Assembly (NCBI GenBank): GCA_051294375.1
Contig: CM119267.1
Location: forward strand, 7,137,205 to 7,201,204
Length of the DNA stretch: 64,000 nt
Direction: 5' to 3'
Source: Paraspadella gotoi
Taxonomy: Eukaryota > Animalia > Chaetognatha
The position numbers and the translations under genes are program-made. Positions 10,667-56,717 of this stretch are shown here, one piece after another (the first letter of the stretch is position 1; each line of letters begins with the position of its first letter). The notes beneath the pieces are model-generated. The model did not search any database and had not been told where the DNA came from. It saw nothing but the letters and a program-made list of their open reading frames with translations.

Positions 10667-10845
10667 ATGTCGTCGTCGTCGTCGTCGCGTCGCAGTCAAG
10701 CGGGGACGAATTCCGAATCCGAATCTCGATGCACCAACTCTCCAACCTTCGTCTTCTTCAAAGGCGCCGTCGATATGATCGTCAATACGATATTCTACGT
10801 CGTCGATTTGGCCTTGAGATGCAGTTTGGTCGCCACATTCGCAAC
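10667..10845 (+). CDS. XK-Rho gene exon 1 (cytosolic N-terminus and first TM helix)
   Basis: ATG at 10667; translates MSSSSSSRR...IVNTIFYVVDLALRCSLVATFA; donor AC|gtaagg at 10846. An additional upstream exon cannot be excluded. Confidence 0.75.
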
Positions 10846-13354
10846 GTAAGGTTTTCGTCGGCGAGCGTTGTTAATCTCTGCCGTCACAACTCAGTGACGG
10901 AGAGTCTGCTGTTCTAAAGGCTGTATGGTTGACTAAAATCCACCAACCGTTCATCAGCGGCCATTGGTGCCGGAGGCAAGTCATTCACCTCCCAATCCAA
11001 AGATCCGGGGTTCTAGCCCGGTGGCCGCCTAGCAGTTAAGAGGGACGGGGCGCTTAACCCGCCTGTAACTCGGTGTTACAGCCTGATCCGAAGCTCAGGG
11101 ACTGCTTATATTGAACGGTTCTGTCTATCTCTTCTATCTCTATCTCTTCAGCTCCAGAGTTTCGATTATGAATGCACTTTTTATACGTATATTGTGGCGA
11201 ATCCTAAATTCGCCTCCCCATAAACACGCCAGTGACTTTGGGTGGTCACTGCAGGTCCAAAGCCCTGAGCGCCAGCTGTCGGGAGATGCCTCACACCCAA
11301 GGCATCACACATGACCCCCCGTTGCCATTATATGATTATTTTGACCTTGAGCCGCTGAGGACCTATAACAGATATGCACGGAGATACAGAAAGATGCTCT
11401 TTCTCGTTTGTGAAACTGTCAAATTTAATCGTGCACCCACTGACAGACCGACTGACAGACCGATAGGTATCACTACAACATAACTATTTCGATCTCATGA
11501 CAATTTTCTCTCCCCCACCCTGTTTGGTTCAGTGAAGTATGCATGGAGGACGGTACTATGGCTCATCCACATTGGACACTGTGGACTCTGTTTCTCATCG
11601 TTGTCCCTGGGTATTTCATCGCCATTTACAACATCATGCGACAATGGAAATGGTAAGGCGGCAAGGGACATTTTAAATGTAACAGTGTAATACCATCGCA
11701 GACGGAATCAAAACCAAAAGATGGAATCGGATCGGTGACTCGGATAAAATTTACCAAGGACTCTGTGATTGGATGAATCATCATCGAAACGGACCAATGA
11801 GAAGAGAGGCTTCATGCCCGTGTCGATGATCCGATTGCGTTGTATAAATACCAGACCATTTTGTATTGAATCCATTCTATCTCAAATTCTGACACCGTCT
11901 TTGCTTGTGACTTTTCTAAGAATAAAATCCACTTTGGTCTCAAGTTGAAATCTCTGTCTACTTACTTAAATGTGGTGGCAGCGGTGGGATTCGAACCGAC
12001 GCCTCCTCATGTTGAAATCTCTGTCGACTTATTTAAATGATACAATAATACTATGTCTATAATCAACTTCACTTGATTCCAGGATGGGCGGCACCCGTTG
12101 GGCTCAGCTGGCGCTCGTTATCTCCAACCTGGTGCTTTTGGGTCCGGCCTTGAATCGGCTGCAGTACGTCGTCAAATCTTGGCGGATCCTCCATCAGGAC
12201 AAGACGAAGAGATCCAAGCAAAGAGTGGATATGCAGATGGAAGAGACGCGATTGTGGAATCTCATTGTGAGGAGAATGAGTGAGGGAAATTGAGGAATTG
12301 AGAGGTCAGGGGGTCAGAAAGTGTGGGAGCAGAAAGTTTTAGGTTTAGAACATAAAAAACATACGACCTATTTAACAAAAAACAAAGCCGACATCTCTCA
12401 TTCATAAAATGGATAATAAAATCGTTGTTTCCTTATCATAAAATCTTAATGCCACTGGACGACAATATGCAAATTAGATGGAAGAACCGATTTTTTTCAA
12501 AAAATCAAAACTATTTTTTTTTTTATTCTTGTTCCCATAGTAAAGCGTTATTACCCTGCTTCTCTGTCCCTACCCCCAACACAAAGGTAATGAGCAAGTT
12601 GATCCAAGCCATCTGCGCCTCGTACCCGCAAGCCCTGTTTCAGGTCTACCTGGCGGTTAGGGAGAAACAAGTGACTTACCTGAAATTCCTCACCATCGCC
12701 TCGTCCCTCGCCACGTTCGTTCATTCCTTCACGGAATCCGAGCTTTACGTCCTCTCGCGAATCTACGAGATGAGCGGAAGGAAATACTTTGGCGCCGCTC
12801 TTGGACACAGATTGCTGACCAGTGAGTGCCACTGTGGTGGCGGGCGATGGAAAAAGCTTTGTGCAATGTGCCACGGTCGAAGGAAGTAAAAAACAAGAAC
12901 TTGAAGAAAGAGATTACTTTTGCCTTTTTGTGTTTTTTTTTTTTTTTCTCGATTAATTATTCTTTACCATCATCTATTATTACGTCTACGACATCATCAA
13001 TTTTCAGAGATGATGTGGCTGACGCTCGTGCTGAGCAGCGCCCTCTCGCTGCCCCTCTTCGCCGCCTACACGTGGAAGGGCGAACTGCTCGCCCTTTTCC
13101 TCCTCATCGTATATCCTCTCTTCTTCGTCGATCACAATGGATACACGATGACCATCTTTGTTCTACACCGTTATCTCTTCTTTCACCAGGGTAAGGACGA
13201 GGCGGAAAAGTAAGTTTCCGACGAGAATTTCTAATTATTTAAATTTCTAATAATTCAGACGAGAACGAAGAGAGTTCGCGTTTCCAATTGTTTTCGAAAG
13301 TCTTGGGGCCAAACTGAAGAAATGAGTTGGAAAAAGAGTCTTTCAATGCAAGGT

Positions 13355-13400
<46 letters not shown>

Positions 13401-14822
13401 AGGAGAAGAGAGAAAGAGACGAAAAACAGAAGAAGGTCTTTTCGTATAGTTCGGCTTTAGGTTTTCGAAGTCGCGCTTAATCAGTCGTGGCATTTATTAG
13501 TGGTTTCATGCTTTCTTTGTATTTCTCTTTCACTTATTTATTCCGTAATAAATCTTCTCTGTTATTTCTTGCAATTTCTCTCCGGCCATCTTCACCCACA
13601 ACCCTTTCTCTCTTCCCATTACCCTCGACCCGGCACGACCCTCCATACCGATCCCAAACCTCCCGCCCACCCTCACTCCCCTCACTCCCCTCACTCCCCT
13701 CACTCCCTCCTAATCCCCTTCTCTATCTCACGACTCCCCTCCCCCCCCCCCAGGTCTCAGCCTTCACGAACGTAACGTGTGATGTACTCTGGTTCCATCG
13801 CTGGTCCGTCTCTTCCGCAGTCACGATCTTCTTGGCCTACTACGGCTGCTTCGCCGCCAACGACGAACTCGATCATTCCGAGAGCTGCGATAACAACACC
13901 GCCGCCGCCTTCAACGCCACCGTCGCTTTCGCCGCAACGAACGCCACCGTGGGCGCCACCGTCGCTACGCTATTCCCCGCCAACGGCACTTTCGCTACCG
14001 ACGTCGATCCGACCGTCCTCTCTAACATTTTCTCTCGGGTCTTCTTCCGCGTCGATTCCAACCGGCGAGATTTCTTCCTCGGCACCCTTTTCACTGCTCT
14101 CGCCTTCGCCATTCTCTGGCAGCTGCGGGTTCGGCAGCATTTGCCGCCGGTGCTGCGGAAACGCGAGCGCCAAAAGAAGGTCGTCCTCATCGGCGACGAC
14201 GGCGTCGGCAAATCCGCGGCGCTCCACGTCTACGAGTCGGGAAGATACGTCACGATGGACCGGACGTGCGCCGAGCGGCCCGTCGAGGTGCGCCGAGAAT
14301 TCTTCGGCGTCGACTTCGATTTCGTCGTGGAGGATTTGCCCGGAGGGAGTCCGCCGCAGAAGTTGAAGGATCCGGATGTGATCGTTGTCTTTTTCGACGT
14401 GTCCAAGTGAGATGGAAAAGAATAGAATGATAAAAGGGGAATTTGCTATGATTATTGATTAAGTATTGTAATCACACGATCACCTTCCACCCACCAATCC
14501 CCATCGCCCTTTTCCAGCCGCACCTCCTTTCTCAACGCCCGCAATCTTTACTGCCCCCAAACGCGCGATTTCTTTCCTTCGGCCAAACTCCTCGTCGTCG
14601 GCGCGATGACGGACAAGCGCGATTTGAAGAACTTCTTCGACGACTTCGTGGGTCAAGCCGAGGTCGACGCCGAGATCAGCGGCGCCGACAACGACGACGA
14701 CAACATCGCCTACGTCGAGTGCTCGTCGAGGGAGTTGAAAGGCGTCGACGAGGCCTTCGAGACGGCCTTCAGGATGGCGATTGGAGATTCATGTTTGAGA
14801 TTCAAGAGGATGTTGAAGATGT

Positions 14823-14827
<5 letters not shown>
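10667..14827 (+). CDS. XK-related (XKR/CED-8-like) multipass membrane protein fused to a C-terminal atypical Rho-like GTPase domain; 7 exons, 618 aa
   Basis: Hand-spliced exons 10667-10845, 11533-11652, 12083-12266, 12587-12821, 13008-13190, 13761-14406 and 14518-14827. All introns are GT-AG with compatible phases, total 1857 nt in one open frame. XK-like motifs: FYVVDLAL, HWTLWTLFLIVVPG, LLGPALNR, KLIQAICASYPQALFQVY (cf. RLLEAFLESAPQLVLQLY). Rho-like motifs: KKVVLIGDDGVGKS, DVIVVFFDV, LLVVGAMTDKR, YVECSS, GVDEAFETA. Confidence 0.85.
10960..11120 (+). mobile_element. Degenerate tRNA-derived SINE-like element in intron 1 of the XK-Rho gene
   Basis: B-box-like GGTTCTAGCCC downstream of TGGTGCCGGAGG; body motif gcttaacc...acagcctgatcc also appears near 38140-38190 (-). 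Confidence 0.4.
11533..11652 (+). CDS. XK-Rho gene exon 2 (second TM helix; absent from the ORF track)
   Basis: Acceptor ttcag|T, donor TG|gtaagg; translates EVCMEDGTMAHPHWTLWTLFLIVVPGYFIAIYNIMRQWK, resembling the XKR WFGLTLxxxxxP segment. Confidence 0.8.
11678..12039 (+). mobile_element. LTR-like segment plus tRNA-Leu PBS plus duplicated 29-bp end, in intron 2 of the XK-Rho gene
   Basis: Starts TGTAA, contains TATAAATA and AATAAA, and is followed by TGGTGGCAGCGGTGGGAT. Direct repeats at 11944-11972 and 12011-12039 match 27/29. The canonical terminal CA is absent. Confidence 0.5.
11973..12006 (-). pseudogene. 3' half of tRNA-Leu (AAG/TAG type) including CCA; on the + strand an extended primer-binding site
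   Basis: Reverse complement GGAGGCGTCGGTTCGAATCCCACCGCTGCCA-CCA matches the conserved metazoan tRNA-Leu 3' end (GGAGGCGTGGGTTCGAATCCCACCGCTGCCA) with one mismatch. Confidence 0.8.
12083..12266 (+). CDS. XK-Rho gene exon 3
   Basis: Acceptor ttccag|G, donor ATT|gtgagg; translates MGGTRWAQLALVISNLVLLGPALNRLQY...RLWNLI. Confidence 0.8.
12587..12821 (+). CDS. XK-Rho gene exon 4 (XK signature SxPQxxxQxY)
   Basis: Acceptor caaag|GTA, donor A|gtgagt; translates VMSKLIQAICASYPQALFQVYLAVRE...FLTIASSLATFVHSF. Confidence 0.82.
13008..13190 (+). CDS. XK-Rho gene exon 5 (hydrophobic TM segments)
   Basis: Acceptor ttttcag|AG, donor G|gtaagg; translates MMWLTLVLSSALSLPLFAAY...LLALFLLIVYPLFF...YLFFHQ. Confidence 0.8.
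13761..14406 (+). CDS. XK-Rho gene exon 6: last TM helices, N-glycosylation-rich loop and G1-G3 of the GTPase domain in one exon
   Basis: Phase-compatible acceptor tctcag|CC, donor AA|gtgaga; continuous frame FLGTLFTALAFAILWQL...RERQKKVVLIGDDGVGKS...EDLPGG...DVIVVFFDVS. Confidence 0.85.
14518..14827 (+). CDS. XK-Rho gene exon 7 (GTPase G4-G5 and stop)
   Basis: Acceptor ttttccag|C; translates RTSFLNARNLYCPQTRDFFPSAKLLVVGAMTDKR...YVECSSRELKGVDEAFETAFRMAI...MF*, aligning by eye with RhoA [32 protein letters not shown]...YMECSAKTKDGVREVFEMA. Confidence 0.85.
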
Positions 14828-16354: not shown

Positions 16355-17410
16355 GGCCAATAAATATAAGAGCGGAGTAATTCCCGAGAGCTCGTCTCCG
16401 ATGGGTCTCTTAGATCCGCAGCGCGACTCGGTAGGCGAAGAAACTTCGCTTCGGAAAAAACCTTCGGCTCGACTCGAGCGGGTGGAGGAAGAGTTCTCCT
16501 ATCGGGATCGAGGCAGATAACGACTAATGGCGCCGCCCTCGAGCATTCGATTGAGGCTCCGTCCGCTTAGGATGCTTAGGATGCTTAGGATGCTGACGAC
16601 GGCGGAGGAGCCGACGGCCATTGGCGGTTAAGATGGTAAATGTAAATGTTAATGTAAATGTAAATGCAAGAAGCAACAATATAAAGAATGCGCACCACCC
16701 TCGTTAATCGCAACGGGAAAAGGAGACGCATCCGTCGTTCCTTGATTTTACGAATATTTTTTTCTTGTTTAGTCCCGCTTTTTATTTTCCTCTCAGTTCT
16801 TCTTCTTTTCTAATCTTTCCTTTCTTTAACTCTCTTCTATTTCTCTTTCTTATTCTTTCCTTTTTTTAACTCTCCTNNNNNNNNNNGGCCAATAAATATA
16901 AGCGCGGAGTAATTTCCGAGAGCTCGTCTACCGATGGGTCTCTTAGATCCGTAGCGCGACTCGGGAGGCGAAGAACCTTCGCCACGGAAAAAACCTTCGG
17001 CTCGACTCGAGCGGGTGGAGGAGTAGGAAGAAGTCTCCTATCGGGTTCGAGGCAGATAACGACTAAGCGAGGCTAATGCCGCTAATGGCGCCGCCCCCGA
17101 GCATTCGATCGAGGCTCCGTCCACTTAGGATGGTGACGCTAAGCGTTGCTGACGACGGCCATTGGCGGTTAGGATGGTAAATGTAAATGCAAGAAGCAAC
17201 AATATAAAGAATGCGCATCACCCTCGTTAATCGCAACGGGAAAAGGAGACGCATCCGTCGTTCCTTGATTTTACGAATATTTTTTCTCGTTTACTAAACA
17301 ATGTTTAGTCCCGCTTTTTATTTTCCTCTCAGTTCTTCTTCTTTTCTATTCTTTCCTTTCTTTAACTCTCTTTTATTTCTCTTTCTTATTCTTTCCTTTT
17401 TTTTTAACTC
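16355..17410. repeat. Direct duplicate pair (16355-16876 and 16887-~17410) separated by a 10-N gap; probably uncollapsed haplotypes
   Basis: Both copies start ggccaataaatataag immediately after a 10-N gap and differ by SNPs and short indels. Confidence 0.8.
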
Positions 17411-17520
17411 TCCTCTATTTCTCTTTCCTATTCTTTCCTTTTTTTAACTCTCCTCTATTTCTCTTCCCTATTCTTTCCTTTTTTTTAACTCTCCTCTATT
17501 TCTCTTTCTATTCTTTCCTT
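17362..17520. repeat. ~40-bp pyrimidine-rich tandem repeat, about 4 copies
   Basis: Unit ttaactctcctctatttctctttcctattctttcc(t)n. Confidence 0.8.
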
Positions 17521-20763: not shown

Positions 20764-22709
20764 CCCCTGTACCACTCTCCTGTTTGATCCGCCCCCTTTT
20801 TCCTCAGCTCTTTAAATCCGATTCTTCACGTAAGTCCAACAAGGAATTATTTATTCCACCGTCATTTCCCAAATTAAATCATTAACCGTTGCGCTTTACC
20901 CATCTGCTATCGTTCCCAACTTTCATTTAACAGTCTTAACTTACCTTTCTTCTACCCTACCTTCTCTCTTTTGAACCGACTGCGTGCGACGAACTGAACT
21001 TTTCACTCTGGCGCTTTTCTCTTCTACCACATAGATACGTTTTTTACCTCACCAAACCTTTTTCATCGCCTTTTTAATCTGCACCTAAGATTACTTAATT
21101 ACTTACATTACCCAATTACATTACTTTACATTACTTACACCTGAGATTACTTAATTACTTACTTACTTAACCTAAACGGTATTCTTAAAAATTCCATTTC
21201 CCCTTTCAACTCCCTTTTCCCTCCTCATTCCACAAACCCTTCCATTCCCCTTTCCCTTCTTTCCACTCCCCTTCCACCTCCATTTCTCTCCTCTTTCCAC
21301 TCCTCTTTCCACAGTCCTTCCCTCCCCATTTTCCATTCGTCCTTTCCACTTCCCCTTTCCACTCCCCCCTCCCTCTCCCTCTCCCTCCCACCACAACCCC
21401 CTCCCCCTTCGTCCCGGAATCCGCGCCTGTTTCTTTGCTTCCCATTTATTTTCCTCTTTAACCTTCAATCTTCGTCTTTTGTAGTTTGTCGTCGTTATTC
21501 GTCGTCGTCTTCGTCGTTGTCGTCGTCGTAGTCGTTCTCTACTCGTCGTTTACATAGTCATCATGGAAAATTGTTACCATCATGTCACGTCACGTCATGT
21601 CTTGTCATGATATTATGAAATTGTAACAACCAATGTGAAAATCATCCATTTATTCAATGAATAAGGTATCTTGCCCCCAACTTTAAGCAATGGACAGGCG
21701 ATGAAGGGCTAAGGCCTCCCTCCCTCTTACAAGACCCTGCAAGCTTTCAATCAGGACTCTCTCGCAGTCTGATTTATTAGCACCCATAGTGCCTGGCTTG
21801 CATAGGTATCAACGTAGTGGTATCGGGTATGACATTTCAATAAACTGTTTAAATTGTATAAAAGGATCTCTCCCTCAAGTATCACGTCTGGGAATACTAT
21901 ATTGTACCCCGCAATAGCTTCAAACAGACAAACGGACATACAAGGACGTTAAAAGAAACAAAAAAACACGCTTGGAGAGCCAGACAAAACGGGATGGGAA
22001 AAAAACTAATCAAAAACTAAAACTGAAAAAAACAAAAAAACAAAAGGTAAGCAACTTCCGTAACCTGGAATGCGATTTGATTTTTTTGGTTGGAATGAAA
22101 TGAAATGAAATCAAGTAGTCGTTGATCGATCTTATCTATTTTATTACAAATTTGGTGCAAAGTCGATCCCCTAATCATTCAAATCTTCGTTTCGAAGATT
22201 AGAGAAGTTAGTAATTTATTTTTATGCAGTGAATTACTAGTTTTCTTTTTTCGTTTTTTTTTTTTTTTTGACTAAAATTCCTTCTTTTTTTTTTTAACTG
22301 AAAGAAAAAAGCCACTTAAAATTTATATATCCATGGTCATGGCTTTTGTTTTATTGTTTTTTTTTTTAGTTTCTTTTAATCATGTGAATCAAACGATACT
22401 CAGAAAACACCAATCAAAAATATTTATGTAAAAAGGAAAAAGGATATAAAACGAAAAAAAAAACGTCATCGGGTAAAAATCACGTGAATTTGATAATCTT
22501 GATAACTGAATAACTGACAAAAGATCAAACTATCTAAACTTGTTATTGCGAGTTTGCTGTTTATATAAACTAACGATAAGCGACCTCGGCACCGTGACCA
22601 GCATCAAATCAAACTCCCCCACAAGAGCAACAACAGCAACATCCCCAGGCCGTCTCCATCTCCGACCTCGACGTCCGCTCGCCCCGTCTCACCGACTTCT
22701 CTCACTCCG

Positions 22710-22901
22710 ATGGGTTCCAACCACTCGCGCGACTTCGAGTCCGAGCGAGAGATCTTCAAATCCAAGTTCGAAGCGAATCGGCGCGCGTCGACGAGCCTCT
22801 CCGTGCAGGACTTCGACCGCGTCGCCACCGTCGGCACCGGAACCTTCGGTCGGGTCGTCCTCGTCCGGAGGAAGGGCGAGAAGGGGGTCTTCGCCTTGAA
22901 G
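22710..22901 (+). CDS. PKA-C-like exon 1 (MGxxxS myristoylation motif, Gly-rich loop, catalytic Lys)
   Basis: Translates MGSNHS...[31 protein letters not shown]; donor AAG|gttctt. Confidence 0.85.
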
Positions 22902-25900
22902 GTTCTTGGAGACGGTGGGAGGGCGTGAGAGGAAGGTCGTTGTTGTTGTTGTTTGTTTGTTTTTTAATGTGAATTTAAATAAAGTTTAAACGTTTGTTCT
23001 TTATTTAAAGCGCAGCAGTTCTTCTTCTTCTTCTGCTTTTTTTCCATTTTTTTTTCTTCCGCGAAATTTTTTTCTTCTTCTTTAAAAAAAAAGGATTTTC
23101 GGCGTCGAGTGAAATTCAAAAAAAAAAAACATCTGCCGTTGAAAATGGTTGGGTTGGTGAGCGATGGAACTCTGCGGAATATTCATAATATGGCCCAAAA
23201 AAATAGGGAAAGAGTGCAAAATGTGCATTGTGCAAACTACGGAGCCGAGCATCTAGAGGTTTTAATGTTGTTTGAAAATTCAATTCGTTTTTACTAATAA
23301 GTATCAGGCGTTGCGTTTAAAACACAGTTAAAGATGAAATCGTTTTTTCATAAGTTTTTTTTTCCGATTCGAATCTCAATGACGGATAATTCCAGGACCT
23401 TTGGGGGTTCCGTTTAAAAAATTCAGTAAAAGATCATGTGATGTAAGCAAACCCGTTTCCACCGCCGTCTGCGATTACATCTGCAATCCTTACCATTCGC
23501 CATCGGTCATTCCGTCTGCAAATATATATTATATATGCAATGCCTTTCGCTTCGCCATCTGAGATTCCGTCTTTGCTTCTACAAAATGAGTCCAAGACGA
23601 ACGTGACTTTGACTCTCACAAATTTATGCGAAATAAGATTCATTCTTCTTCTTTTTTATATGGAAAAGAGGCGGGGAAATGGACGCCGACGACGACGACG
23701 ACGACAACAACAACAAGGAAGATTATATAATAATGTCAATGACGACGACGACGAAAACGACGTTAAACAAGACGAAAAATCCGTTTTCCACCGACACCCC
23801 AGGTCTTAAAAAAGTCGGAAGTGGTGAGACTCCGCCAAGTGGAGCACACCCTGTCCGAGAAGCGCATCCTGCTGAGCGTGGAATTCCCCTTCATCGTCCG
23901 TCTGCTCCACCACTTCGTCGACAACGTCAATCTCTACATGGCGTTGGAGTTCGTCCCTGGCGGAGAGCTCTTCACGCATCTGAGGAAGAGCGGACGATTC
24001 GGCGAAGCCAAGTCGAGGTTCTACGCGGCGCAGGTTGTGTGAGGGGAAGGGCTCGACGTTTGGCTTTTCTTTCTTTTGTTATTTCTTTTTCTTTATTTTT
24101 TTGTTTTATTTTTTTCTCTCTTTTCTTTCTTTGTGTTATTTTTACTTTCCTCTCTCTTTCTTTCTTTCGGTCTTTTTTCTTTCTTTTTATCTTTCTTTCG
24201 TTCTATAATTTTTTTTGTCTTTTATTTACTCTTTTTTACTTAACTTTTTTAATCCCTTCTTTGCTTCTTTGCTTCTTGATCACTTTCTTTTTCTTCTTCT
24301 CTTTCTTCGTAATATTTTCAACTGTTGATTTTTTTTCTCAATCAGGTTGTCATGACGATAGCGTATCTCCATCACCTTCACATCGCCTACAGAGACATCA
24401 AACCGGAAAACCTTCTGATCGACGCACAAGGGTGAGGAAAGAAAAAAAATGACTGGAAAAGTAAAAAAAACAAAAAAAATTAATGTAAACAAAAGAAATC
24501 AAAAGAAAAGTTAAGAAAACAAAGTGTAGAAAATTGTCTATGATTTTCCATGCTTTTGGGTCGCGCGTTTGTGGCATCGCCCGTACAAAATGTACGACAA
24601 GAGTTGATGAAATTGAATATTTTATTATTACATCCAAAAAAACTCATATAAATTTATTTTTATACGGGCAGACGTTTCAAACTTTCAATAATTCGAAAAT
24701 TAGTTTGAATGACAATATCACGGGAAATCAGACTAAAAATTGACTTTAAAACGGGCGGTTTTAATAACTATTAAGTTTGTTGTCAGACGGGGTTGAACAG
24801 GTTAAGTGAGAGACTCAGATAGAGAGTCTATATTTCTACTCAAAGAAAACTAAAAATAAACTGACCCCCACCCCCCCCACTAGAGTTACCCAAATTTTTA
24901 ATTAAACCAGCATGAAGGGTCACGATCTCTTATTAGGTTCTTTCTTTGTCTAGAAGGAACATTGACTGCATAAAACCTGAAAAAAACTTGCACCGGAAAG
25001 GAACTCTCCAGATTTCCAATGATCGATACTTTTGCGGTTTTCTTGATCGTAATCTTATATGTGAAATTAATTAAAGGCATTTTTTTAATCAAAAAATGCA
25101 TTAAATCAATACCTTGATTTTGATTTTGAAATATATTTTTGTTTTGTTAAACTTTATATTTTTATTAAACCTCGTTTAATTCTTTATATAAATTTCTAAT
25201 TAATAATATAAAGTATATAATATAAAAATATTAAAGCATGATCATTAGTTTTCTTGAATAAAATACTTACCTAAAAGTATTCCTAAAATTTTGTGAAGAA
25301 TACAATATTAAAATAATAATATTTAGCAGTACTTACTTAAAATAAAATCAAAATACACAATATTAACTTTTAAAAACTAAAAAAAAAGATTAAAATTTAT
25401 AATTATTCTCCATAACTTTTTTTTAAATTTTTGAGTCTTTATGCTTAAGATTATGCGCCTTTATTACCAGAGAACTGTCAAATTTTAGATTAAAATATCA
25501 GATATTTTCAGAATACCTGCCCTAAGTCTTTGCTTTTAGTAAAATAACAAGAACTGTTTGGAAAATGGCCCAAATACTACTTTTGTGGCTATGAGTTAAA
25601 TTGTTTTTCTCCAGAAATTATAAACTTTTATTGTCTTTAAAAACAAGATTTAAATCTAAAACAGTATTTCATAAAAACATTAAAGTAGAAAATTTTGAAT
25701 TACTTGGTTTTTGCCTTTTATTAGATAGCTAGATTGCATATATTATTGATTTCAAGTAATGTTTTGTGAATATGTATCAACATAATAACAATCCCCAACG
25801 CGCGCCACAAATATTATATTTATTAATTAGTATGGCATAGTTATAGAGTTACAAATGCGCCAAGAATCTCTCTCCNNNNNNNNNNNNNNNNNNNNNNNNN

Positions 25901-34188: not shown

Positions 34189-34675
34189 GAGAGGTGTGAT
34201 CTTAGGGCAAATATGGGAAATAACTTAGTTAGGAAAATCTTTTGTCTATTCGCAATCGAGAGACTAATTTTTTTTAGTCGGCCGCATTCTTACTATTTGT
34301 GTATTGTATCTTATGGAATATCCGTTTCGTTTGATTGTTCTTTCCTTGTTTGTTTACTTTATAGTTTTTTGTAGTACGCTTTCGTATCTTAATTATTTTT
34401 AAAAAAACGGTGTTGATTCCTTAAGTTGAAAAAGTGGAAATTGTGCTGAACTTTTCCAACAAAATATAACGAAAATAAAAGTCAAGAAAATATTGGAGAG
34501 AATCGACGGAAGAAAAGAGAGAAAAAGTCACTCGATTCGCGAATCGCGTTCACCTTCAAAATCTTTGTTTGTTTTTACAGAAAAAAAAATTTGTTTTTCG
34601 TGTTGACATAAAAAATGATTGAATAAAAATACAATGTTATGAAGTGTTTACCTCGACAACGAATTAAACCGGCGC

Positions 34676-34725
<50 letters not shown>

Positions 34726-37506
34726 GTAATTCGATTCCATGAAAAAGAGAACCTATTTTGTTGATGTCCAGGATCTGAGTGAAACCTGTTCTCTGAATGA
34801 CTTTCGTTTTTTATTCGTATTTCCTCATTAGTATCAAACATCAAAAATAGGGACTCAACTGTTATCTGTTACACATTCAACTAGTCTACTGAACTAGCTT
34901 AATCAATATTTTTTTTTATTTAATTTTCTTAATAGAATAGGATAAAGTTGGATAGCATTGAATAGGATTAGATAGAATTTTAGTAGGTTCTTATATGAAA
35001 TTTTTTTTTTCTATAGCCCTTTCGCTATTTTTGTCTTTTAGCTTTTTGCATTGCGCGTTTTACAAATGGTTATTCAAAAAAATGGTAGGATTAAACCTTC
35101 TTTCTCTGAGGAAGTGGTAATACAAGTTTGCTCTCCGCAGAGAGAAGGGTCAATTCCTGAGCAGAAAACAAAACCGAGTTTCTCGAAAAAGACGACGACG
35201 ACGGCGACGACGACGGCGATGACGTAAACAAAGATAAAACAGAGGTAAATACCGAAGGCGTCAGAGTCCGCTGAACGTCAAAATATCAGAAAGCGGCCAA
35301 GCTCAGGGGATGGCGCTGACCAAGGGGGCGTGACCAAGCGATGCGGCGTCTGACGCCGAGAGAGTGACGCGGCAATGCGTGACTCAAAGTCTGACGACAA
35401 ATGTGACGCAAAGACTGACGCCAAAAATGTGTTGGCGTTTTATGTCGACGCGGTTGCTTTGTTTATTGGTTCCGTTTTTATCCGTTGAGTCTAAGGACAT
35501 TGACCTTTTTTCATTTTAAGCCATAAAAGTTAATTAAGTATGAGAATCTGTTTTTAGTTAAACAGATTCTCATACTTAATTAACTTTTATGGCCGTTGGC
35601 TTTAGTTTGTTTCGCTAATACTATAATAATCTAAGGACATAGGCTTCTTTCATTGTCTAAAAACAGATACTCATACTTAATTAGGCTATTGTTGTAGTTG
35701 GCTTTAGTTTGTTTCGCTAATACTTCACTACTGCAGTTATTTAAATTTAAAAAAAAACTTATTACCATGTAAAAAAATATCTCGACATTCGTTCGAAAGT
35801 TTTCAACTGGAACTAATTAAATTCTTTTTTTTTTCATAATAAAAAAAAAAGTGTAAAACAAAATTTCGATGCGTCTCGAAAGGAAAGAAGTCATTTATCA
35901 AAACGCATCCTTCTTTCCAATAAACTCAAAATTGTCGCTCATTAATCAACGCGGATTCTTTCGAAGAATTTTTAAAAAGTGAAAACCCTTTTTTTTTTCC
36001 TTTTTTTTTAAGTAAATTTCAAATCAGGATGTTTTTGTTTTAATCATTTTTTTTTTTGGGGGGGGGTTTCTTTAATTACCGTTTTTAGGTACTTACACCA
36101 CAACATTCAGACAGTTTTTAGTCGTTAATAATGAAGAAATTTTGATCATTATTCAATTCGTCGCCTTTGTAGTCTGTAATTTTTTTTTCCCGTGTAGCGA
36201 TGCGGCTGAGCCTCGACTTGATTTGAAAAGAATTCGTCAAACTCCCAAAGCTGGGCAGTGCCTTCGTCGACGGCGTCGTCGTCGTCGTCTTCTTCATCAT
36301 CGTCGTCGCTGACATCATTGTGTTCCTCGTAGCCTAAGACTTTTCTTCTTTTCGATCCTGCCCATTGCCCATCGATAACTTGTGTCGATATTCAGATCAA
36401 ATCGACAACGTTTCGGTCTTTGATCATTCACGTGAGCCAGCTTTTTTTTTTTCATTTCGTCTCTCGTCCTGTCACTTCATCAACTTTATCGCCGTTGATC
36501 GTCGTCGTCGTTGTTGTCGTCGTTGCTGACACTCAATTTTTCCATGATTCGTCTATCAGTCGTCGTTACCGTCCGTAGAATCGTTTCCCTTCTCGCTTCC
36601 TTCCCTTCTCGATTATCCTTCTTTCCTATTCTTCCCCAGTCCCCAGTCCCCATTTATCCCCAGTGCCCTCTATCCTTCCCCACCCCCACTTTCCCTAGCC
36701 TCCCCTCGATCTCACTCCAGCCTCGTTTCTTTATCCAATCTTCCTCAAGATCTACTTCCTTGTTGTCGATTCTTCGGAGCAAAGTTCGGATATATCGGAT
36801 CTGGGGAGGAGGAGGAGGAGGAGGGGGAGGAAGAGGAAGAGGAGAAAGAGGGTAGGGACCTCAGATAAGTAAGGAAAGCCTGGGAAAAGTGAGGCGTTGA
36901 GTGAGGGAGAGAGGGGGTGTAGAGAGAAAGGGGAGGGTGGACAAAGATCGGGTGGTTCTCGCTGGAATTCAAGATGGCAGAAAGTACTAATTGGTTACTC
37001 TGTGTTTGAATGCGTCCTTCCTTGAAAACGAATCAAGCTCAAACCATTTTTTTTCTCTTCTTTCCTTTATCACAATTTTTTTTTTAAAACAATTTCCCTC
37101 ATTATTGTTAATTTACATTATTATGAAGAGTAGTGGCGTGATTAAATTACGCCTGTGGAAAATAACGCTTTTAACCGGGAGATCGTTCACCTTTGATTCA
37201 ATTTCCGGTTTTTTTTTTTTTGTTTTGTTTTTTTTTTTGTTGTTGTTATTTTCGGGCCAAAAAGTTTTAAAAAAAGCGGATTAAGTTGTGTTTCGAACGT
37301 AATTAGAGGAAAGTAAACGACCTGAGAAGATGAAAAGACATTAAAAAAGAAAGCCAAATGAAGTATAAAATAGACGCTAACGACGACGACGACCGACGAC
37401 GCTTAGAAAAAAAGTTGAACCCGAACTGGTTTTCACGTCATCATCGCTTAACTGATTTTACCATGTTGGACCGCACGGCTAAGACGTCATTGCTCTCTCT
37501 CTCCTC

Positions 37507-37549
<43 letters not shown>

Positions 37550-37559
37550 TCTCTCTCTG

Positions 37560-37635
<76 letters not shown>

Positions 37636-38248
37636 TTTTTTTTTTTTTTTTTTACTCCGCACTTCATTTTGTTTTCTTATTTTGAGGCGAAACATAAATT
37701 TGCCGGAGCATCTGTTCTCTGTTCCCTCGAGGAGATATGGGGAAGGGATGCTGAGGGTTGCGATGGGGTGAAGGGGAAGAAAGAAGAACCGGAATGGGGG
37801 GAAGAAAGAAGACCGGTGGGAAAGGGGAGAAAGAAGATGTGAGAGAACGTTGACCAAGGGGGTGTCACTGGGTCAGAGAGAAGGTGGGTGGTTTAATTAA
37901 TATTAAAAGGTGTAGTAACTAAGAATGAACAAGAATGGGTCGAGCGAGTGGTGGAATGAAAATATGACATTAATTAATTAATAAATGGTTAAGTAAATTC
38001 TTTCCAACTTTTTCCCTCTTTTCGAGACGGAAAGAGAATTCATCAGGGTCGAGGTCAAAGCCGCCGCTCCGGGTCGTTGGCCCCGATATGTCTCTCCGGT
38101 GTTTCCGACCCTCGGGTCACTTTTGAGCACCGGTGCATGAGTACTGGATCAGGCTGTCATGTCCCGTAATCTAGGTTAAGCCGCTCCAACTATTNNNNNN
38201 NNNNNNNNNNNNNNNNNNNTTTTTCCGTCTCCGAAGGCGACTGCTCTT

Positions 38249-38287: not shown

Positions 38288-38942
38288 ATCTCTCTCTCTC
38301 TCCCTCTCCTCTCTCTCTCTCTCCTCTCTCTCTCTCCATTTCGCGTCTCAGACTCATCAAACTTTTTTTTTCAAAATAGTTGGAGCGGCTAACCTAGATT
38401 AGCGGGAAATGACAGCCTGATCCCCAGTACTCATGCAGCGCGGTGCTCAAAAGTGACCGAGGTCGGAAACACCGGAGAGACATATCGGGGGCCCCCAACG
38501 ACCCGGAGCGGCGGCTTTGACCTCGACCCTGATAAATTCTCTTTCGTCTCGAAAAGAGGGGAAAAAGTTGGAAAGAATTTACTTAAACCATTTAGTAATT
38601 ATTATGTCATATTTTAATTCCACACTCGCTCGACCATTCTTGTGTTCATTCTTAGTTACTACAACCTTTTAATATTAAGTTAAACCTACCCACCTTCTAA
38701 TCTGACCCAGTGACACCCCCTTGGTCAACGTTCTCTCACATCTTCTTTCTCCCCTTTCCCACCGGTCTTCTTTCTTCCCCCCATTCCGGTTCTTCTTTCT
38801 TCCCCTTCACCCCATCGCAACCCTCAGCATCCCTTCCCCATATCTCCTCGAGGGAACAGAGAACAGATGCTCCGGCAAATTTATGTTTCGCCTCAAAATA
38901 AGAAAACAAAATGAAGTGCGGAGTAAAAAAAAAAAAAAAAAA

Positions 38943-38976
<34 letters not shown>

Positions 38977-39000
38977 AGAAGAGAAAGAGAGGAGAGAGAG

Positions 39001-39063
<63 letters not shown>

Positions 39064-42000
39064 AGAGACGAGAGAGAGAGAGCAATGACGTCTTAGCCGG
39101 CGTCTGTAAAATCAGTTAAGCGATGACATGACGTGAAAACCATTCGGGTTCCAACTTTTTTTCTAAGCGTCGTCGGTCGTCGTCGTCGTTAGCGTCTATT
39201 TTTACTTCATTGGCTTTCTTTTTTAATTCTTTTCACTTCTCAGGTCGTTTACTTTCCTCTAATACGTTCGGAACAAACTTATCGCTTTTTTTAAAACTTT
39301 TTGGCCCGAAAATAACAACAACAAAAAAAAAAACAAAACAAAAAAAAAAAAACCGGAAATTTGAATCAAAGGTGAACGACTCTCCCGGTTAAAAGCGTTA
39401 TTTTCACAGGCGTAATTTAATCACGCCACTACTCTTCATAATAATGAAATTAACAATTACTGAGGGACCGATTGGTTTTAAAAAAAAATTGTGATAAAGG
39501 AAAGAAGAGAAAAACAATGGTTGAGCTTGATTCGTTTTTCAAGGAAGGACGCATTCAAACACAAAAGTAACCAATTAGTACTTCTGCCATCTTGAATTCC
39601 CAGCGGGGAATTAAAAGAAACACCCCCCCGAAAAAATTTCCTTTGTCCACCCTCCTCGCGCTTTCTCTCTACACCCCTCTCTCCCTCACTCAAACGCCTC
39701 ACTTTTCCCAGGCTTTCCTTACTATCTGAGGTCCCTACCCTCTTTTCTTCCTCTTACTCTTTTCCTGCCCGCCTCCTCCTCTCCTCCTCCCCAGATCCGA
39801 TATATCCCCCCCGACTTTTGCTCCGAAGAAACATCGACAACAAAGGAAGTAGATCTTGAGGAAGATTGGCTAAAGAAATACGAGGTGGAGTGAGATCGAG
39901 GGGAGGCTAGGGAAAAGTGGGTGGGGAAGGATAGAGGGCACTGGGGATAACATGGGTGACTGGGGACTGGGAAGAAATAGGTAAAGAAGGATAAATCGAG
40001 AAAGGGAAGGACAGCGAGAAGGGAAACGATTCTACGGACGGTAACGACGACTGATAGACGAATCATGGAAAAATTGAAGTGTCAGCCAACGACGACAACA
40101 ACGACGACGACGATCCACGGCGATAAAGTTGATGAAGTGACAGGACGAGAGACCGAAATGTAAAAAAAAAAAAGCTGGCTCACGTGAATGATCAAAGACC
40201 GAAACGTTGGTTCAGATTTTGATCTGAAATAATCGACAAAGTTATCGATGGGGAATGGGCAGGATCGAAAAGAAGAAAAGTTTAGGTACGAGGAAACACA
40301 ATGATGTCAGCGACGAAACCGATGATGAAGAAGACGCACCGCGACGAACGGCCGTCGTACGAAGGCCACTGCCAGCTTTGGGAAGTTTGACGAATTTCTT
40401 TCAATCAGTCGAGGCTCAGCGCATCCGGTACACGGGAAAAATTACAATGATACAAAGTGCGACGAAAATTGAATAAAATGATCAAATTTCTTCATTATTA
40501 ACGAACTACTGCTGAATGTTTGTGGTGTAAGTACTAAAACGGTAATTAAAGAAACCCCCCCCAAAAAAAATGATTAAACAAAAAAATCCTGATTGAAATT
40601 TACTTAAAAAAAAGGAAAAAAAAAGGGTTTTCACTTTTTTAAAAAATTCTCGAAAGAATCCGCGTTGATTAATGGAGCGACAATTTTGAGTTTATTGGGA
40701 AAGAAGGATGCGTTTTGATAAATGACTTCTTCCTTTCGAGACGCATCGAAATTTTTGTTTTAGCACTTTTTTTTTTATTTGAAAAAAAAGAATTAATAGT
40801 TCCAGTTGAAACTTTCGAACGAATGTCGAGAATATTTTTTTACATGGTAATAAGTTTTTTTTATTTAAATACTGCAGTAGTGAAGTATTAGCGAAACAAA
40901 ACTAAAGCCAACTACACAATAGCCAATTAAGTATGAGTAAATCTGTTTTAGACAATGAAAGAAGCCTAATGTCCTTAGATATTATATATTAGCGAAACTA
41001 AACTAAAGCCAACGGCCAATAAAATTTAATTAAGTATGAAAATCTGTTTAAACTAAAAACAGATTCTCAGTACTTAATTAACTTTTTATGGCCTTAAAAT
41101 GAAAAAAGGTGCATGTCCTAGACTCAACGGATAAAAACGGAACCAATAAACAAAGCAACCGCGTCGACATAAAACGCAACAATTTTTTGGCGTCAGTCTT
41201 TGCGTCAACATTAGTTCGTCAGACTTTTTGAGTCACGCATTGCCTCGCGTCAACTCTCTCGGCGTCAGACGCGCATCGCTTGGTCACGCACCCTTGGTCA
41301 GGCGCCATCTCCCTGACTGGCCGCTTGTCTTGATATTTTGACGTTCACGGACTCTGACGCCTTCGGTATTTACCTCTGTTTTATCTTTGTTTTACGTCAT
41401 CGGCGTCGTCGTCGCCGTGGCGCGTCGTCTTTTTCGGAACTCGGTTTTGTTTTCTGCTCAGGAATTGACCCTTCTCTCTGCGGAGAGCAAACTTGTATTA
41501 CCAAACTTTCCTCAGAGATAAGAAGGGTTTAATCCTACCATTTTTTTGAATAACCTTTGTAAAACGCGCAATGCAAAAAGCTAAGACAAAAATAGCGAAA
41601 GGGCTATAGAAAAAAAAAATTTCATATAAGAACCTACTAAAATTCTATCTAATCCTACTTTCAATTGCTTATCCAACTTTTCCTATTCTCTATTAAGAAA
41701 ATTAAATAAAAAAATTTTATTGATAGCTAGTCAGTAGACTAGTTGAATGTGTAACAGATAACAGTTGAGTCCCTATTTTTGATGGTTTGAATACTAATGA
41801 GGAAATACGAATAAAAAACGAAAGTCATTCAGTAGAACAGGTTTCACTCAGATCCTGGAACTCAACAAAATAGGTTTGCTCTTTTCATGGAATCGAAATT
41901 TACATTTGAGAAGAGAGAGAGAGAGCAGAGAGAGAAGAGAGAAGAAAGGGCGCCGGTTAAATTAAGTTGTCAGGTAAAACACTTCATAACATTGTATTTT

Positions 42001-42448
42001 TATTCAATCATTTTTTATGTCAACACGAAACATAATTTTTTTTTCTGTAAAAACAAAACAAAGATTTTTGAAGGTGAACGCGATTCGCGAAATCGCGTGA
42101 CTTTTTCTCTCTTTTTCTTCCGTCGAATTCTCTCCATATTTTCTGAACTTTTATTTTCGTTTATATTTTTGTTGGAAAAATTTCAGCACAATTTTCCAAC
42201 TTTTTCAAACTTAAGGAATCAAACACCGTTTTTTTAAAAATAATTAAGATACGAAAGCGTACTAGCAAAAAACTATAAAAGTAAAAAACAAGGAAGAACA
42301 ATCAAACGAACGGATTTCCATAGATACAATACACACATAGTAAGAATGCGGCCGACCTAAAAAAAAATTAGTCTCTCGATTGCGAAATAGACAAAAGATT
42401 TTCCTAACTAAGTTATTTCCGCAATATTTGCCCTAAGATCACACTCTC
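34189..42448. repeat. ~4-kb inverted duplication (34189-38194 vs ~38375-42448) around a 25-N gap; likely assembly artefact
   Basis: End-to-end reverse-complement match; the second arm carries scattered 1-bp indels. Confidence 0.85.
35520..35593. repeat. Perfect 34-bp inverted repeat with a 6-nt loop
   Basis: gccataaaagttaattaagtatgagaatctgttt-ttagtt-aaacagattctcatacttaattaacttttatggc. Confidence 0.9.
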
Positions 42449-45534: not shown

Positions 45535-48500
45535 CTCGTGTGGGAGTCCGTTTTTTTTATCGCTTCCCTTTTATCGCCCTTCGTGGGTGTCCGTCGGTCC
45601 GTCGGTCCGACGGTCTTGACTGTCCGAATGTCCGTTTTTATGTCCTTTCTTTTTGCGAGGCGAAGGAGCCGGGCCGTGCGATGTGGATGTGCCAAGAATG
45701 AAGACGGCCGACGACGGGGGCCACGACGAAGACGACGATGAACATGATGACGAAAACTACGACAATAGCGTCCATGACGACGATGAAGATGACAGAGATC
45801 ACAATTAAGAACGAAGAAGACGAAGATGATGAAAATATAAGTGACAACCGAGACGATGATACAGACGATAACGAAGACGAAGATGAAGATGATAACATAG
45901 ACGACGAGGACAAGCATGAAGAAGACAATGAAGAGTTGAAGACCATGCCGTCAATGAAGACGACGACACTAATGACAAAGACGACGTTGACAACAAGAAC
46001 AGATCTGATGAAAGAGACGACAACGAAGACGACGATGATGACAACGACGAAGACAACGACGAAGACGACAAACGGAAGCGACCATTGACGACTGAACGGC
46101 TGACTGACTGACAAGACTATTGACTAATCGAATTTACAGGAAAATTCTTATTTCTTCTTTTTTTCTCTCTCTCTCCTCTTTTAAATTCTCCATTTTCCGA
46201 TTAAAGGAAAAAAAATAAGATAAAAGTCAGAACTCATCAGTTGAAAAACTTTTTTTCCTCGATGCGGAAGAATGCACTGATTTGAATAATTGTTGGACAA
46301 GCTATGCAAGCTATATTCAAACTTGTTATAATTATAGTCAAATATCGGAATTATATAATCTGTAAAATATAAACCAATGTACAATGGCACCAGGACTTCG
46401 CAATTTATAAAAGATAAATTTAAATGACGGCAACAAATTCGTATTTGTTATTCGTATCAAGGTTTTGAAACGTTAAAATTATTTTTCATTAGTATAATTA
46501 ATGGATTATAATCCTTGCGCCTCGCGTTCGATTGATCGCAATTTCTCCGCCTCCGCTCTTTTTTTTCAATCCTCGCGTTTGTGGGCGTCGGCGTCGATTA
46601 GCCGCCGCCATTTTCCGCGGAAATCAGCGCCGCCGGGGCTTTATTTCCTTTTCCGCCTTCTCGCTTCCTTTGGCACTGCAGAAACGCGGAGGCGCGCGCC
46701 AATGCCGAAAAAAACTTCTTTTTCCCCGCTCAATATTTTCAAGTTGGGCGGGAAGAGAAAGCGAGTGCTGTGGCTATTAAGAGGTATGGAGAGATGAGAG
46801 AGAGAGAGAGAGAGATAGAGAGAGAGAGGAGAGAGAGAGAGAAATATTTAATCGTCAAGGGAGAATTTGTAAATATAATTATTAATAAAGTTTAAGTAAA
46901 AAATGGCGAAATGAATGTCATAAGCATAAAAACAAAACTACGATGGACGGGACGTTTGGATGTTTTTACTTTCTTTCAGATCTTTGGCCTCGAACCAAAA
47001 AGGGCTCTGGTAATGCGTTTTTCGGTCGCGTTTCAACGGGTGGGTGGGAATTTTTTTTTCTTCTTCTTCTCTTTCTTCTTGTTGCGCCTAACTTACCCTT
47101 TACTTTCCTCGATTCCTTTTCCATTTATTCGAGATTCTTTATGGCGCATTTTCTTTCTAACCCTCTGTCCCTCCTCACTTAATTTACTCTCCCTTCACTT
47201 ACCCTTTTTCTGAAACTTACCCTAACATTCTCCCCACCCAACACAATTCATTTTCTCCCTTATTTTTTCTGTAGATTTTCTCAAGATTTCTCGTGTGGGA
47301 GTCCGTTTTTTTTATCGCTTCCCTTTTATCGCCCTTCGTGGGTGTCCGTCGGTCCGTCGTCGACGGTCTTGACTGTTCGAATGTCCGTTTTTATGTCCTT
47401 TCTTTTTGCGAGGCGAAGGAGCCGGGCCGTGCGATGTGGATGTGCCAAAGAATGAAGACGGCCGACGACGGGGCCACGACGAAGACGACGATGAACATGG
47501 ATGACGAAAAACTACGACAATAGCGTCCATGACGACGATGAAGATGACAGAGATCACAATTAAGAACGAAGAAGACGAAAGATGATGAAAATATAAGTGA
47601 CAACCGAGACGATGATACAGACGATAACGAAGACGAAGATGAATATGATAACATAGACGACGAGGACAAGCATGAAGAAGGACAATGAAGAGTTGAAGAC
47701 CATGCCGTCAATGAAGACGACGACACTAATGACAAAGACGACGTTGAACAACAAGAACAGATCATATGAAAGAGACGACACGAAGACGACGATGATTGAC
47801 AACGACGAAGACAATAACGAAGACGACAAACGGAAGCGACCTATGACGGACTGAACGGACTGACTGACTGACAGACTAACTTGACTAATCGAATTTACAG
47901 GAAAATTTCTTATTCTTCTTTTTTTTCTCTCTCTCTCTCTTTTAAATTCTCCATTTTCCGATTAAAGGAAAAAAAATAAGATAAAAGTCAGAACTCATCA
48001 GTTGAAAAAACTTTTTTGCCTCCGATGCGGAAGAATCGGACTGATTTGAATAATTGTGGGACAAGCTATGCAAGCTATATTCAAACTGTATAATTATATT
48101 CAAATATCGGAATTATAATTGTAAAATATAAACCAATGTTACAATGGCACCAGGACTTCGCAATTTATAAAAGATAAATTTAAATGACGGCCAACAAATT
48201 CGTATTTGTATTCGTATCAAGGTTTTGAAACGTTAAAATTTATTTTTCGATTAGAATAATTAACGGATTATAATCCTTGCCGCTCGGTTCCGATGATCGG
48301 CAATTTCTCCGCCTCCGCTCTCTTTTTTTATCCTCGCGTTTGGTGGGCGTGGCGTCGATTAGCGCCGCCATTTCATGGGAAATCAGCGCCGGGGGCTTAT
48401 TTCCTTTTCCGCCTTTCTCGCCCTTCCTGGCACCGCAGAAACCGCGGCAAGGCGCGGCCAATGCCGAAAAAACTTTCTTTTTCCCGCTCAATATTTTTTA

Positions 48501-48826
48501 AGTCTGGGCGGGAAGAGAAGCGAGTGCTGTGGCTATTAAAGAGCGTATGGGAGAGGACTGAGAGAGAGAGAGAGAGTCCAAGATTAGGAGAGAGAGAGAG
48601 AGAAGAGAGAAATATTTAATCGTCAAGGAGAATTTGTAAAATATAATTATTAATAATAGTTAATGTAAAAAATGGCGAAATGAATGTTCATAAGCATAAA
48701 AACAAAACTCGACGGGGGGAAACGTTTGGGTATGGTTTTTACGTTCTTTCAGATCTTTGCCCTCGCAACCAAACAAGGGTCTGGTTAATGCGTTTTCCGG
48801 TTCCTGCGTTTCAAACGGGTGGGTGT
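45535..48826. repeat. ~1.5-kb direct duplication (45535-47046 vs 47290-48826)
   Basis: Colinear match; the second copy is indel-rich and ends just before the 25-N gap at 48836. Confidence 0.85.
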
Positions 48827-55190: not shown

Positions 55191-56111
55191 AAAAATTGCG
55201 CGAGAGATGAGCCATCTCTCTCTTCGGTCTTCTCTCTCCGCCTCTCTCGTCCTCATCTCTAGCTGCTCTCTGCTCTCGTTCTCTCGCTTCTCATTCTCTC
55301 GTCCTCCTCCGTCGTGGTTCCTCGTCTCCGCTCTCTCTCGGTCGGTTGTCGATTTAGTTGTATTCTCCGCGCGTGAAATTCCGGTTTTGCCCCTTCTCCA
55401 ACGGTTTGAAGATTGCCTTTCAGGTGGCGAAACCCAACAGAAAAGCTGCTTGAGTAGAAGTGAAGAGGAAGAGGATTGTTTGTACGCAGGAGGGGTGTTG
55501 AGAGCAAGAATGNNNNNNNNNNNNNNNNNNNNNNNNNAAGGATTTTTAAGCAGAGGTGTTGGAGACAGAATGACGATGACGACGACGACAACGATAATTA
55601 TGACAGCGATGATGACGACGACAGTGCCAAGAGTAAAATGAAATATTTAAACAACGAAAATCACAATATCCTTTTGATTTTCAATTTTGGCCGGAATTCA
55701 TGAAAAAGCTCAATTTCAGTTTATATTACCAATTATATTATTAGTTATTATATATATATATATATATATATTAGTTATTATATCATTTTTTTAGTATTAT
55801 TGAATTTAACAAAAAACAAAAGTTTTTAAAGAAAAAAGCTGATGAAGACTCAAAAAACATTTTAAATAAATTGTTATAAAAGCCAATAAAAACTCTTGTC
55901 TTTAATTAAATATATTAGCTAAAAATAAGTTAAGGGATTAGGAACAGAAATGGGGAACATTTGGAAAATAGTGCTACGATCTCTTCGAGACCAACAACAA
56001 CAACGACGACGACAAAACGAGAACGTAAGAGTCTCTCGTAGAAACAAAAGCGACGAAGCAGAAAGAAAATCTCTGTAAAGAGAAGAAACAGAAATAGATT
56101 AAGGGGAAGAA

Positions 56112-56420
56112 GAAAGGAAAATAAGGAAGAAGTAAAAGATAAAAGAAAAGAAAATAAGGAAGAAGTAAAATATAAAGGAAAAGAAAATAAGGAAGAAGTA
56201 AAAGATAAAAGAAAAGAAAATAAGGAAGAAGTAAAAGATAAAAGAAAGGAAAATAAGCAAGAGGTAAAAGATAAAAGAAAAGAAAATAAGGAAGAATAAA
56301 AGATAAAGGAAAAGAAAATAAGGAAGAAGTAAAAGATAAAAGAAAAGAAAATAAGGAAGAAGTAAAAGATAAAGGAAAAGAAAATAAGGAAGAAGTAAAA
56401 GATAAAAGAAAAGAAAATAC
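56112..56420. repeat. 33-bp purine-rich minisatellite, about 9 copies
   Basis: Unit aagaaaataaggaagaagtaaaagataaaagaa; gives the FFLIFFSFIFY repeats in the ORF track. Confidence 0.9.
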
Positions 56421-56426
56421 GAAAGA

Positions 56427-56717
56427 AGTACTCGCGGAGCAACTCTATAAGTCACTTTTCGGTCGGTCTGTCGGTCGGTTGGTCGGTATGTCTGTCTGTC
56501 TGTCCTACTTACGTTAAAAATGATCATAACTCGCCTGTAGTGAGTTGCTCAATTTTAAAAATCCTCAAATTTAAGCCGCCTCCAGGAAATAATACAACTA
56601 TAAAGAATAAAAAAAGTTATTGAAGTCATGTAGTAATGTAATGTCATGTGATCAGAGGGAAATACTCGTGAAAATAAAGTTACTGCGGTGCAACACGTTA
56701 GATTAACCGATCTTGTT
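56427..56717 (+). mobile_element. Non-autonomous Helentron/HINE (DINE-1-like) element, 5' end truncated
   Basis: AGTACTCGCGGAGCAACTCTATAAGTCACTTTTC, then (GGTC/TGTC)n, ending CCGATCTTGTT. A noisy inverted duplicate lies at about 57977-58265. Confidence 0.65.

Follow-up and report, generated by a model that had tools for sequence, protein, structure and literature searches.

What is left of a small GTPase when its switches have eroded but its nucleotide-contacting residues have mostly survived? A gene of the chaetognath Paraspadella gotoi raises this question: it lies in an intron-rich, 64,000-nucleotide stretch of contig CM119267.1 (assembly GCA_051294375.1; hereafter the window), and its last two exons encode a Rho-like G domain with altered motifs. 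An earlier note on this DNA called the domain GTPase-dead or a pseudoGTPase, likened it to Rnd, RhoH and oncogenic Ras, and offered three states for it: constitutively GTP-bound, fast-exchanging, or a nucleotide-free scaffold. With moderate confidence, we read it as a non-cycling, switch-less Rho-derived tail module, probably binding nucleotide loosely, on an XK-like membrane protein.

After splicing, the domain has 182 residues on the plus strand (Table 1), and by its sequence relationships it is Rho-derived. The Pfam Ras family is matched at 40.1 bits (E=3.6e-10), and among the best 60 of 156 PDB sequence matches at E up to 0.01, plant ROPs, Rac2, RhoA and RhoD stand at the top (best E=2.4e-8). 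A HMMER search of 1.84 billion representative proteins returned 48 at E up to 0.001, with no close relative or full orthologue among them. Four were excluded by hand (two repeat proteins, a GIMAP and a fragment, P0028), and 35 of the remaining 44 supplied, by motif, the 42 complete G domains used here for comparison. A Rho profile made from this set with the query left out aligns to the spliced domain from end to end (95 bits, profile positions 1-171), and a global alignment to fish RhoB, in which G4 is slightly off, has 51 of 182 positions identical (about 28%). A Rho insert is present, with 37 residues from G4 Asp to G5 Ser (comparison range 29-42, mode 40). The 199-residue exon translation matched generic small-GTPase clusters only in the ESM Atlas (0.84-0.86), and no second Rho-like sequence was found inside the window. 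All Foldseek matches listed for an AlphaFold model (mean pLDDT 61) are Rho-family chains, which partly reflects the Rho alignment fed to the model, and a helix at model residues 154-160 was taken as the Rho insert. The model was built on the unspliced in-frame reading and is uninformative on the switches, because the alignment placed intron-derived residues at switch II/beta4. As a separate observation, several HMMER matches, including P0002, P0007, P0020 and a 1207-residue Macrostomum lignano record, contain two to four tandem Rho domains, many without Gly12 and Gln61; tandem atypical Rho proteins look common.

Table 1. Features of the gene, in window coordinates
Feature	Position	Strand	Remarks
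Predicted exons 1-5	10667-10845, 11533-11652, 12083-12266, 12587-12821, 13008-13209	+	All GT..AG; junctions predicted
Predicted XK-related exon	12587..12821	+	Pfam PF09815, E=5.2e-5, 22.8 bits against a cut-off of 24.8
Preceding exon	13259..13352	+	3' end matches loose 5' end of X8 contig with two differences; frame broken in window, probably by assembly errors
5' part of G-domain exon	13754..14167	+	Hydrophobic segments, four-sequon loop, final predicted membrane helix (about 14069-14131) and basic linker; frame shared with G domain from 13808
G domain, first exon part	14168..14406	+	beta1, P-loop, alpha1, eroded switch I, beta2-beta3, G3, shortened switch II, beta4
G1 P-loop GDDGVGKS	14192..14215	+	Asp in Ras Gly12 column (14198-14200); Gly-Lys-Ser kept
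G2 region RTCAE	14261..14275	+	Cys in Thr35 column (ungapped alignment), Thr at the residue before it; effector loop not recognisable
G3 DLPGG	14333..14347	+	Asp57 and Gly60 kept; Gln61 replaced by Gly; then proline-containing switch II, 5 residues short
Intron inside G domain	14407..14517	+	111 nt, GT..AG; skipped in X8 contig, present in DNA runs
G domain, last exon	14518..14827	+	alpha3, beta5, G4, insert, acidic alpha4 region, beta6, G5, alpha5, tail, stop
G4 GAMTD (GAMTDKR)	14600..14614	+	Guanine-reading Asp kept; Ala and Met in 116 and 117 columns
G5 ECSSR	14717..14731	+	Ordinary Rho-family variant
C-terminal amphipathic basic tail	14777..14824	+	No CAAX box; common to fragment P0028
Stop codon	14825-14827	+	

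The motifs described earlier are all found where they had been placed on the plus strand: G1 with Asp at the Gly12 column, G3 without Gln, and the AMTD form of G4. How unusual they are varies. Gly occupies column 12 in 21 of the 42 comparison domains (Asp in one) and Gln occupies column 61 in 19 (Gly in two), and both residues are missing together from 18. The shortened insert and the Ser-Ser-Arg form of G5, which had been listed with the losses, do occur here but are ordinary, with no sign of loss: a shorter span is found in 20/42, Ser at 146 in 15/42 and Arg at 147 in 8/42. With the 12/61 pair often changed among divergent Rho domains, and with nothing remarkable in G5 or the insert, what is rare comes down to G4 and the switches. 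Neither Ala at 116 nor Met at 117 occurs in any of the 42, where column 117 holds Lys in 35 and Gln in four. Lys16, Ser17, Asp57, Gly60 and the G4 Asp are kept and the Phe28 column holds Tyr (as in 3/42), and with Thr displaced by one residue from the Thr35 column G2 is ambiguous. Eleven columns have textbook roles in nucleotide contact; seven are identical here, two conservatively changed (T to S, F to Y) and two lost (G2 Thr, G4 Lys). Other conserved columns outside the switches are kept at 19 of 29, so the nucleotide contacts are retained no better than background and give no sign of selection on binding.

Divergence is concentrated in particular segments. Switch I matches the consensus at none of 13 positions (identity 0.00, median of the set 0.54), the lowest value of all, and switch II at 3 of 19 (0.16, median 0.63; 2/42 as low). 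The stretch between G3 Asp and beta4 Asp measures 14 residues against 19 in 31 of the 42 (one is shorter), in agreement with the shortening by about five residues that the earlier note had described; the deletion takes in the Arg and Tyr of switch II, which 38/42 and 37/42 domains retain. Identity is also low in insert-alpha4 (0.17, median 0.40; 1/42 as low), beta2-beta3 (0.12, median 0.38), beta4-alpha3 (0.33, median 0.52) and beta5-G4 (0.42, median 0.75). The values for beta1-alpha1 (0.50, median 0.58) and beta6-alpha5 (0.54, median 0.54) are inflated, the comparison domains, a set biased to divergent ones, having been picked by likeness to the query and cut at G1 and G5. On this alignment the switches are clearly gone, G2/switch I is the most eroded part, and the P-loop and the strand of G5 show normal conservation. 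The erosion of the switches, seen in switch I at 0/13 and in the lost switch II Arg and Tyr and accompanied by the change of the G4 Lys to Met, had been overlooked. The proposal to place the domain by phylogeny among Rho-like domains was taken as far as a quick tree (careful search unfinished, no non-Rho outgroup), which leaves it on an end branch of 3.12 changes per column in no supported group. Nor does it group there with P0032, a protein without a name in its record that we take, by eye, to be RhoH-like. The domain thus resembles canonical Rho proteins (RhoA/B, Rac, Cdc42, plant ROP) in its best PDB matches, its Rho insert, its ECS motif and the spacing from P-loop to G3. It differs from them in Gly12, Gln61, the G4 Lys and probably the G2 Thr, in two unrecognisable switches, in an acidic alpha4 region, in the missing CAAX box and in its fusion behind a predicted membrane helix.

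The unusual motifs are genuine, and the G domain is no assembly artefact. Nine of 11 sequencing runs, from three studies, contain the stretch, and four of these nine were aligned to positions 13425-14826. Within the G domain the four runs differ from the window at a single letter, 14191, a silent change, and no indel inside the domain is among those listed. Its two halves sit in the stop-to-stop frames 13481-14410 and 14459-14827, and only one donor/acceptor pair keeps the frame across the domain. That pair is used in a 2327-nt contig of run X8, which covers 13752-14406 and 14518-14826 and omits 14407-14517; all three DNA runs cover the intron. The X8 contig is transcript-like, its RNA nature being a tool's guess and no run being on record as RNA, and the gene is likely expressed on the evidence of this spliced contig alone. 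Each of the 14 gap letters in the X8 pieces can be assigned to sequence upstream of the G domain, and the last exon has none. There, four of four runs carry one base more than the window near 13780 and again near 13806, both sites lying ahead of the domain. These single-base deletions in the assembly, together with those at 13259-13352 against the loose end of the X8 contig, interrupt the frame before the G domain, and gene models drawn from the assembly therefore need care.

The gene is also under constraint. All six coding substitutions between the runs and the window are silent, where chance would make 23-29% silent (P 2e-4 to 6e-4 under neutrality); the six lie on one haplotype (X8, X6), and as one of them falls inside the G domain, constraint on the domain itself is weakly supported. 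GC3 is 0.82 in the domain (0.82 and 0.81 in its exons), against 0.35-0.40 in three introns, and 0.81 in a neighbouring kinase exon. Agreement of the letters across four runs from three studies, the silence of all six substitutions and this GC3 together argue for a constrained gene over an assembly artefact.

One possible relative was found. P0028 is an unnamed, singleton fragment of 110 residues that matches the query at E=1.1e-4; the two have G5, alpha5 and the tail in common. In local alignment it scores 113 and the runner-up protein 89; over just the final 16 residues the scores are 50 and 30. Both tails are amphipathic (moments 0.59 in the query and 0.61 in P0028). By these similarities P0028 is probably an orthologue; it has no G1-G4 and is uninformative on motif conservation. 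A Gly/Ser/Thr-rich stretch stands in P0028 where the Rho insert and G4 would be, and this relative may be more degenerate still. Word-indexed searches with either exon returned no relative among longer proteins (47 and 1976 candidates), which is weak evidence, and a profile of the last exon plus P0028 recovered only P0028 among 205 candidates of 56-193 residues. Metagenome scans gave 595 pattern matches, none confirmed, and motif matches there were rejected as relatives, six of six being unrelated sequence without a G domain.

Elsewhere in the window, exons of an AGC protein kinase lie at 22569-24039 on the plus strand (Pfam Pkinase, E=4.8e-12 at 23803-24039); this is presumably a PKA catalytic subunit or PRKX-like kinase, and only its N-terminal exons fall within the window. 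A 4.2-kb inverted repeat of 92% identity (34189-38194 and 38375-42448) is centred on an N gap (38195-38219), and a similar 0.97-kb inverted repeat occurs at 56031-58656; they may be assembly artefacts or palindromic elements. Tandem duplicates of 0.4-1.6 kb and 83-92% identity at 16355-17414, 45535-48825 and 60952-61855, several adjoining N gaps, are probably repeats or haplotypes assembled side by side.

To what is the domain attached? A predicted hydrophobic helix lies about 12 residues before beta1, and a loop rich in Ala, Thr and Asn (13871-14060) contains four N-glycosylation sequons. A polymorphic 12-nt in-frame indel at 13911, in this loop, implies a variable extracellular loop. Joined, predicted exons 1-5 read open through 306 codons and encode four hydrophobic windows; the six upstream exons total 1014 nt, within the 1325 nt of upstream sequence in the X8 contig. 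Read support for this structure consists of the last upstream junction, that of exon 13259-13352, and the exons before it are predicted. The XK-related exon, two exons upstream of that junction, matches human XK as its sole PDB hit (E=0.18); the other exons, each tested singly, gave no XK match. With this match and the multi-pass profile, the gene likely encodes an XK-family membrane protein fused to a G domain. A loss of helix-3 acidic residues in the XK part was considered and dropped, human XK carrying the same IQA motif. In intron 2, a 35-nt stretch on the minus strand (11972-12006) resembles a tRNA 3' end by eye and is possibly a SINE remnant; ARAGORN called no tRNA there. Known XK/XKR members carry a short tail through which they are regulated, by phosphorylation or by caspase cleavage (PMC10938166), whereas here the tail would be a G domain. 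Among the papers listed in full-text literature searches, with subscription journals mostly beyond their reach, no title or abstract describes an XK-GTPase fusion or G-domain tail.

Which kind of degenerate GTPase this may be can be judged against known ones. PseudoGTPases are sorted into non-binding, binding-only and still-active classes in PMC5593906 and PMC12490416, with septin-specific classes in PMC10731463. With G2 and G4 degenerate and the G3 Gln lost, the domain falls within the sequence definition of a pseudoGTPase given in PMC5593906. Loss of the canonical Rho cycle, as the earlier note proposed, is likely from the changes at Gly12, Gln61, switch I and the switch II Arg and Tyr; 'GTPase-dead' is more than a sequence can tell. 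Rnd1-3 and RhoH, the binding-only representatives, also lack Gly12 and Gln61 and are GTPase-deficient (PMC8305018; PMC13236570), which makes normal GAP-driven cycling unlikely here. These proteins are free G domains that signal through effectors, whereas this domain no longer has an effector loop or a switch II helix and forms the tail of a membrane protein. That it stays permanently and tightly GTP-bound and addresses Rho-type effectors is very unlikely in our estimate: it shares both substitutions that define Rnd and RhoH, but the effector loop agrees with the consensus at 0 of 13 positions, the G4 Lys is lost and there is no CAAX box, whereas RhoH-like P0032 keeps its effector loop. The analogy to Rnd, RhoH and oncogenic Ras, and with it a constitutively on state, fits poorly because the effector surface itself has been lost.

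The pocket may instead be empty. In Ras, conservation is stronger at positions 117 and 119 than at 12 and 61, and substitutions at the former pair, those of Lys117 included, accelerate nucleotide release and cost the protein about 25 kJ/mol of stability (preprint 10.1101/2022.01.06.475190), so the alternative has to be weighed that the fold persists without nucleotide, as a scaffold or a module for protein binding in the manner of AAGAB or p190RhoGAP pG1. The changed G2 Thr and G4 Lys, an Ala-Met pair seen in 0/42 domains, the Asp-Asp of the P-loop, a branch of 3.1 changes per column and nucleotide contacts retained no better than background all accord with it. The class, with p190RhoGAP pG1/pG2, AAGAB and CENP-M, likewise presents a degenerate G fold inside a larger protein; there, however, most or all G motifs are degraded (all five in p190 pG1), whereas GKS, DxxG, the G4 Asp and the G5 Ser are kept here, and we regard this outcome as possible but rather unlikely. 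It is unlikely that the domain remains a slow, non-canonical hydrolase, possibly assisted by a partner protein or by the membrane portion of its own chain. The models for such an enzyme are Miro domains, which hydrolyse without Y32, T35, G60 and Q61 (PMC6321465), and RGK proteins, which do so despite divergent motifs (PMC5593906); a Thr one residue from the G2 column and the kept Asp57 and Gly60 would suit it, set against two hydrolysis hot spots changed together and a switch II five residues short with its Arg and Tyr deleted. Miro is also membrane-anchored and has lost more of G2 and G3 than of G1, G4 and G5 (PMC6321465), but it has two G domains of its own, EF hands and a C-terminal anchor, whereas a single Rho-insert domain here follows a multi-pass membrane part; no Miro chain is among the best 60 of 156 PDB matches. 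Capture of a Rho domain as the tail of a still functional membrane protein, followed by decay as selection relaxed, would explain the very long branch, the missing full orthologue among 1.84 billion representatives and the lone polymorphism in the domain. We hold it to be highly improbable: the frame is open through both exons in four runs, GC3 equals that of the neighbouring kinase exon, divergence is uneven and the tail is common to P0028. For the gene, the six silent changes of six disfavour decay; the domain itself, with one polymorphism and no full orthologue, is weakly probed.

Of the three states first offered, loose binding with fast exchange thus likely fits best, the nucleotide-free scaffold is kept as its rival and constitutive GTP binding fits poorly. 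Retention of GKS, DxxG, the G4 Asp and the G5 Ser, unlike p190 pG1, together with loss of the effector surface, unlike Rnd and RhoH, favours weak, fast-exchanging binding. In the favoured reading of a non-cycling tail module, the domain, with both switches, Gln61 and the G4 lysine gone, would probably no longer run the Rho cycle of GEF, GAP and effector. By the precedent of Ras and Rho biochemistry, Gly12 to Asp, Gln61 to Gly and a displaced or lost Thr35 should leave little or no hydrolysis and insensitivity to GAPs. Nucleotide would be held weakly and exchanged fast, given the kept P-loop GKS, Asp57, Gly60, Asp119, Ser145 and an aromatic residue at 28 alongside Lys117 to Met, and canonical Rho effectors would presumably not be bound. 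What the module acts on is more speculative. XKR8 is held inactive by a C-terminal tail that plugs the scramblase (PMC10938166), and the position of the G domain at the place of that inhibitory tail suggests that it might act on the membrane part in cis, perhaps with the conserved amphipathic helix at its C-terminus as a contact or a membrane anchor. The boldest version, in which this lineage grafted a Rho GTPase onto an XK scramblase and stripped its switches, so that a nucleotide-sensing plug gates phosphatidylserine exposure in place of a caspase-cut tail, is tentative and, we think, quite unlikely to hold as a whole.

Atypical Rho domains without Gly12 and Gln61 are common (18/42), so on their own the altered motifs say little that is new. 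The unusual point is that erased switches occur together with a kept P-loop and guanine-reading Asp at the tail of an XK-like protein, an architecture that our searches did not find elsewhere. Among atypical Rho domains, themselves a known kind, this switch-less form is represented by one species and one fragment. If its pocket is empty, it would be one more pseudoGTPase scaffold from a single species; if it binds nucleotide and controls scrambling, it would reveal a new mode of XK regulation and provide a natural test of what a G domain can do without switches.
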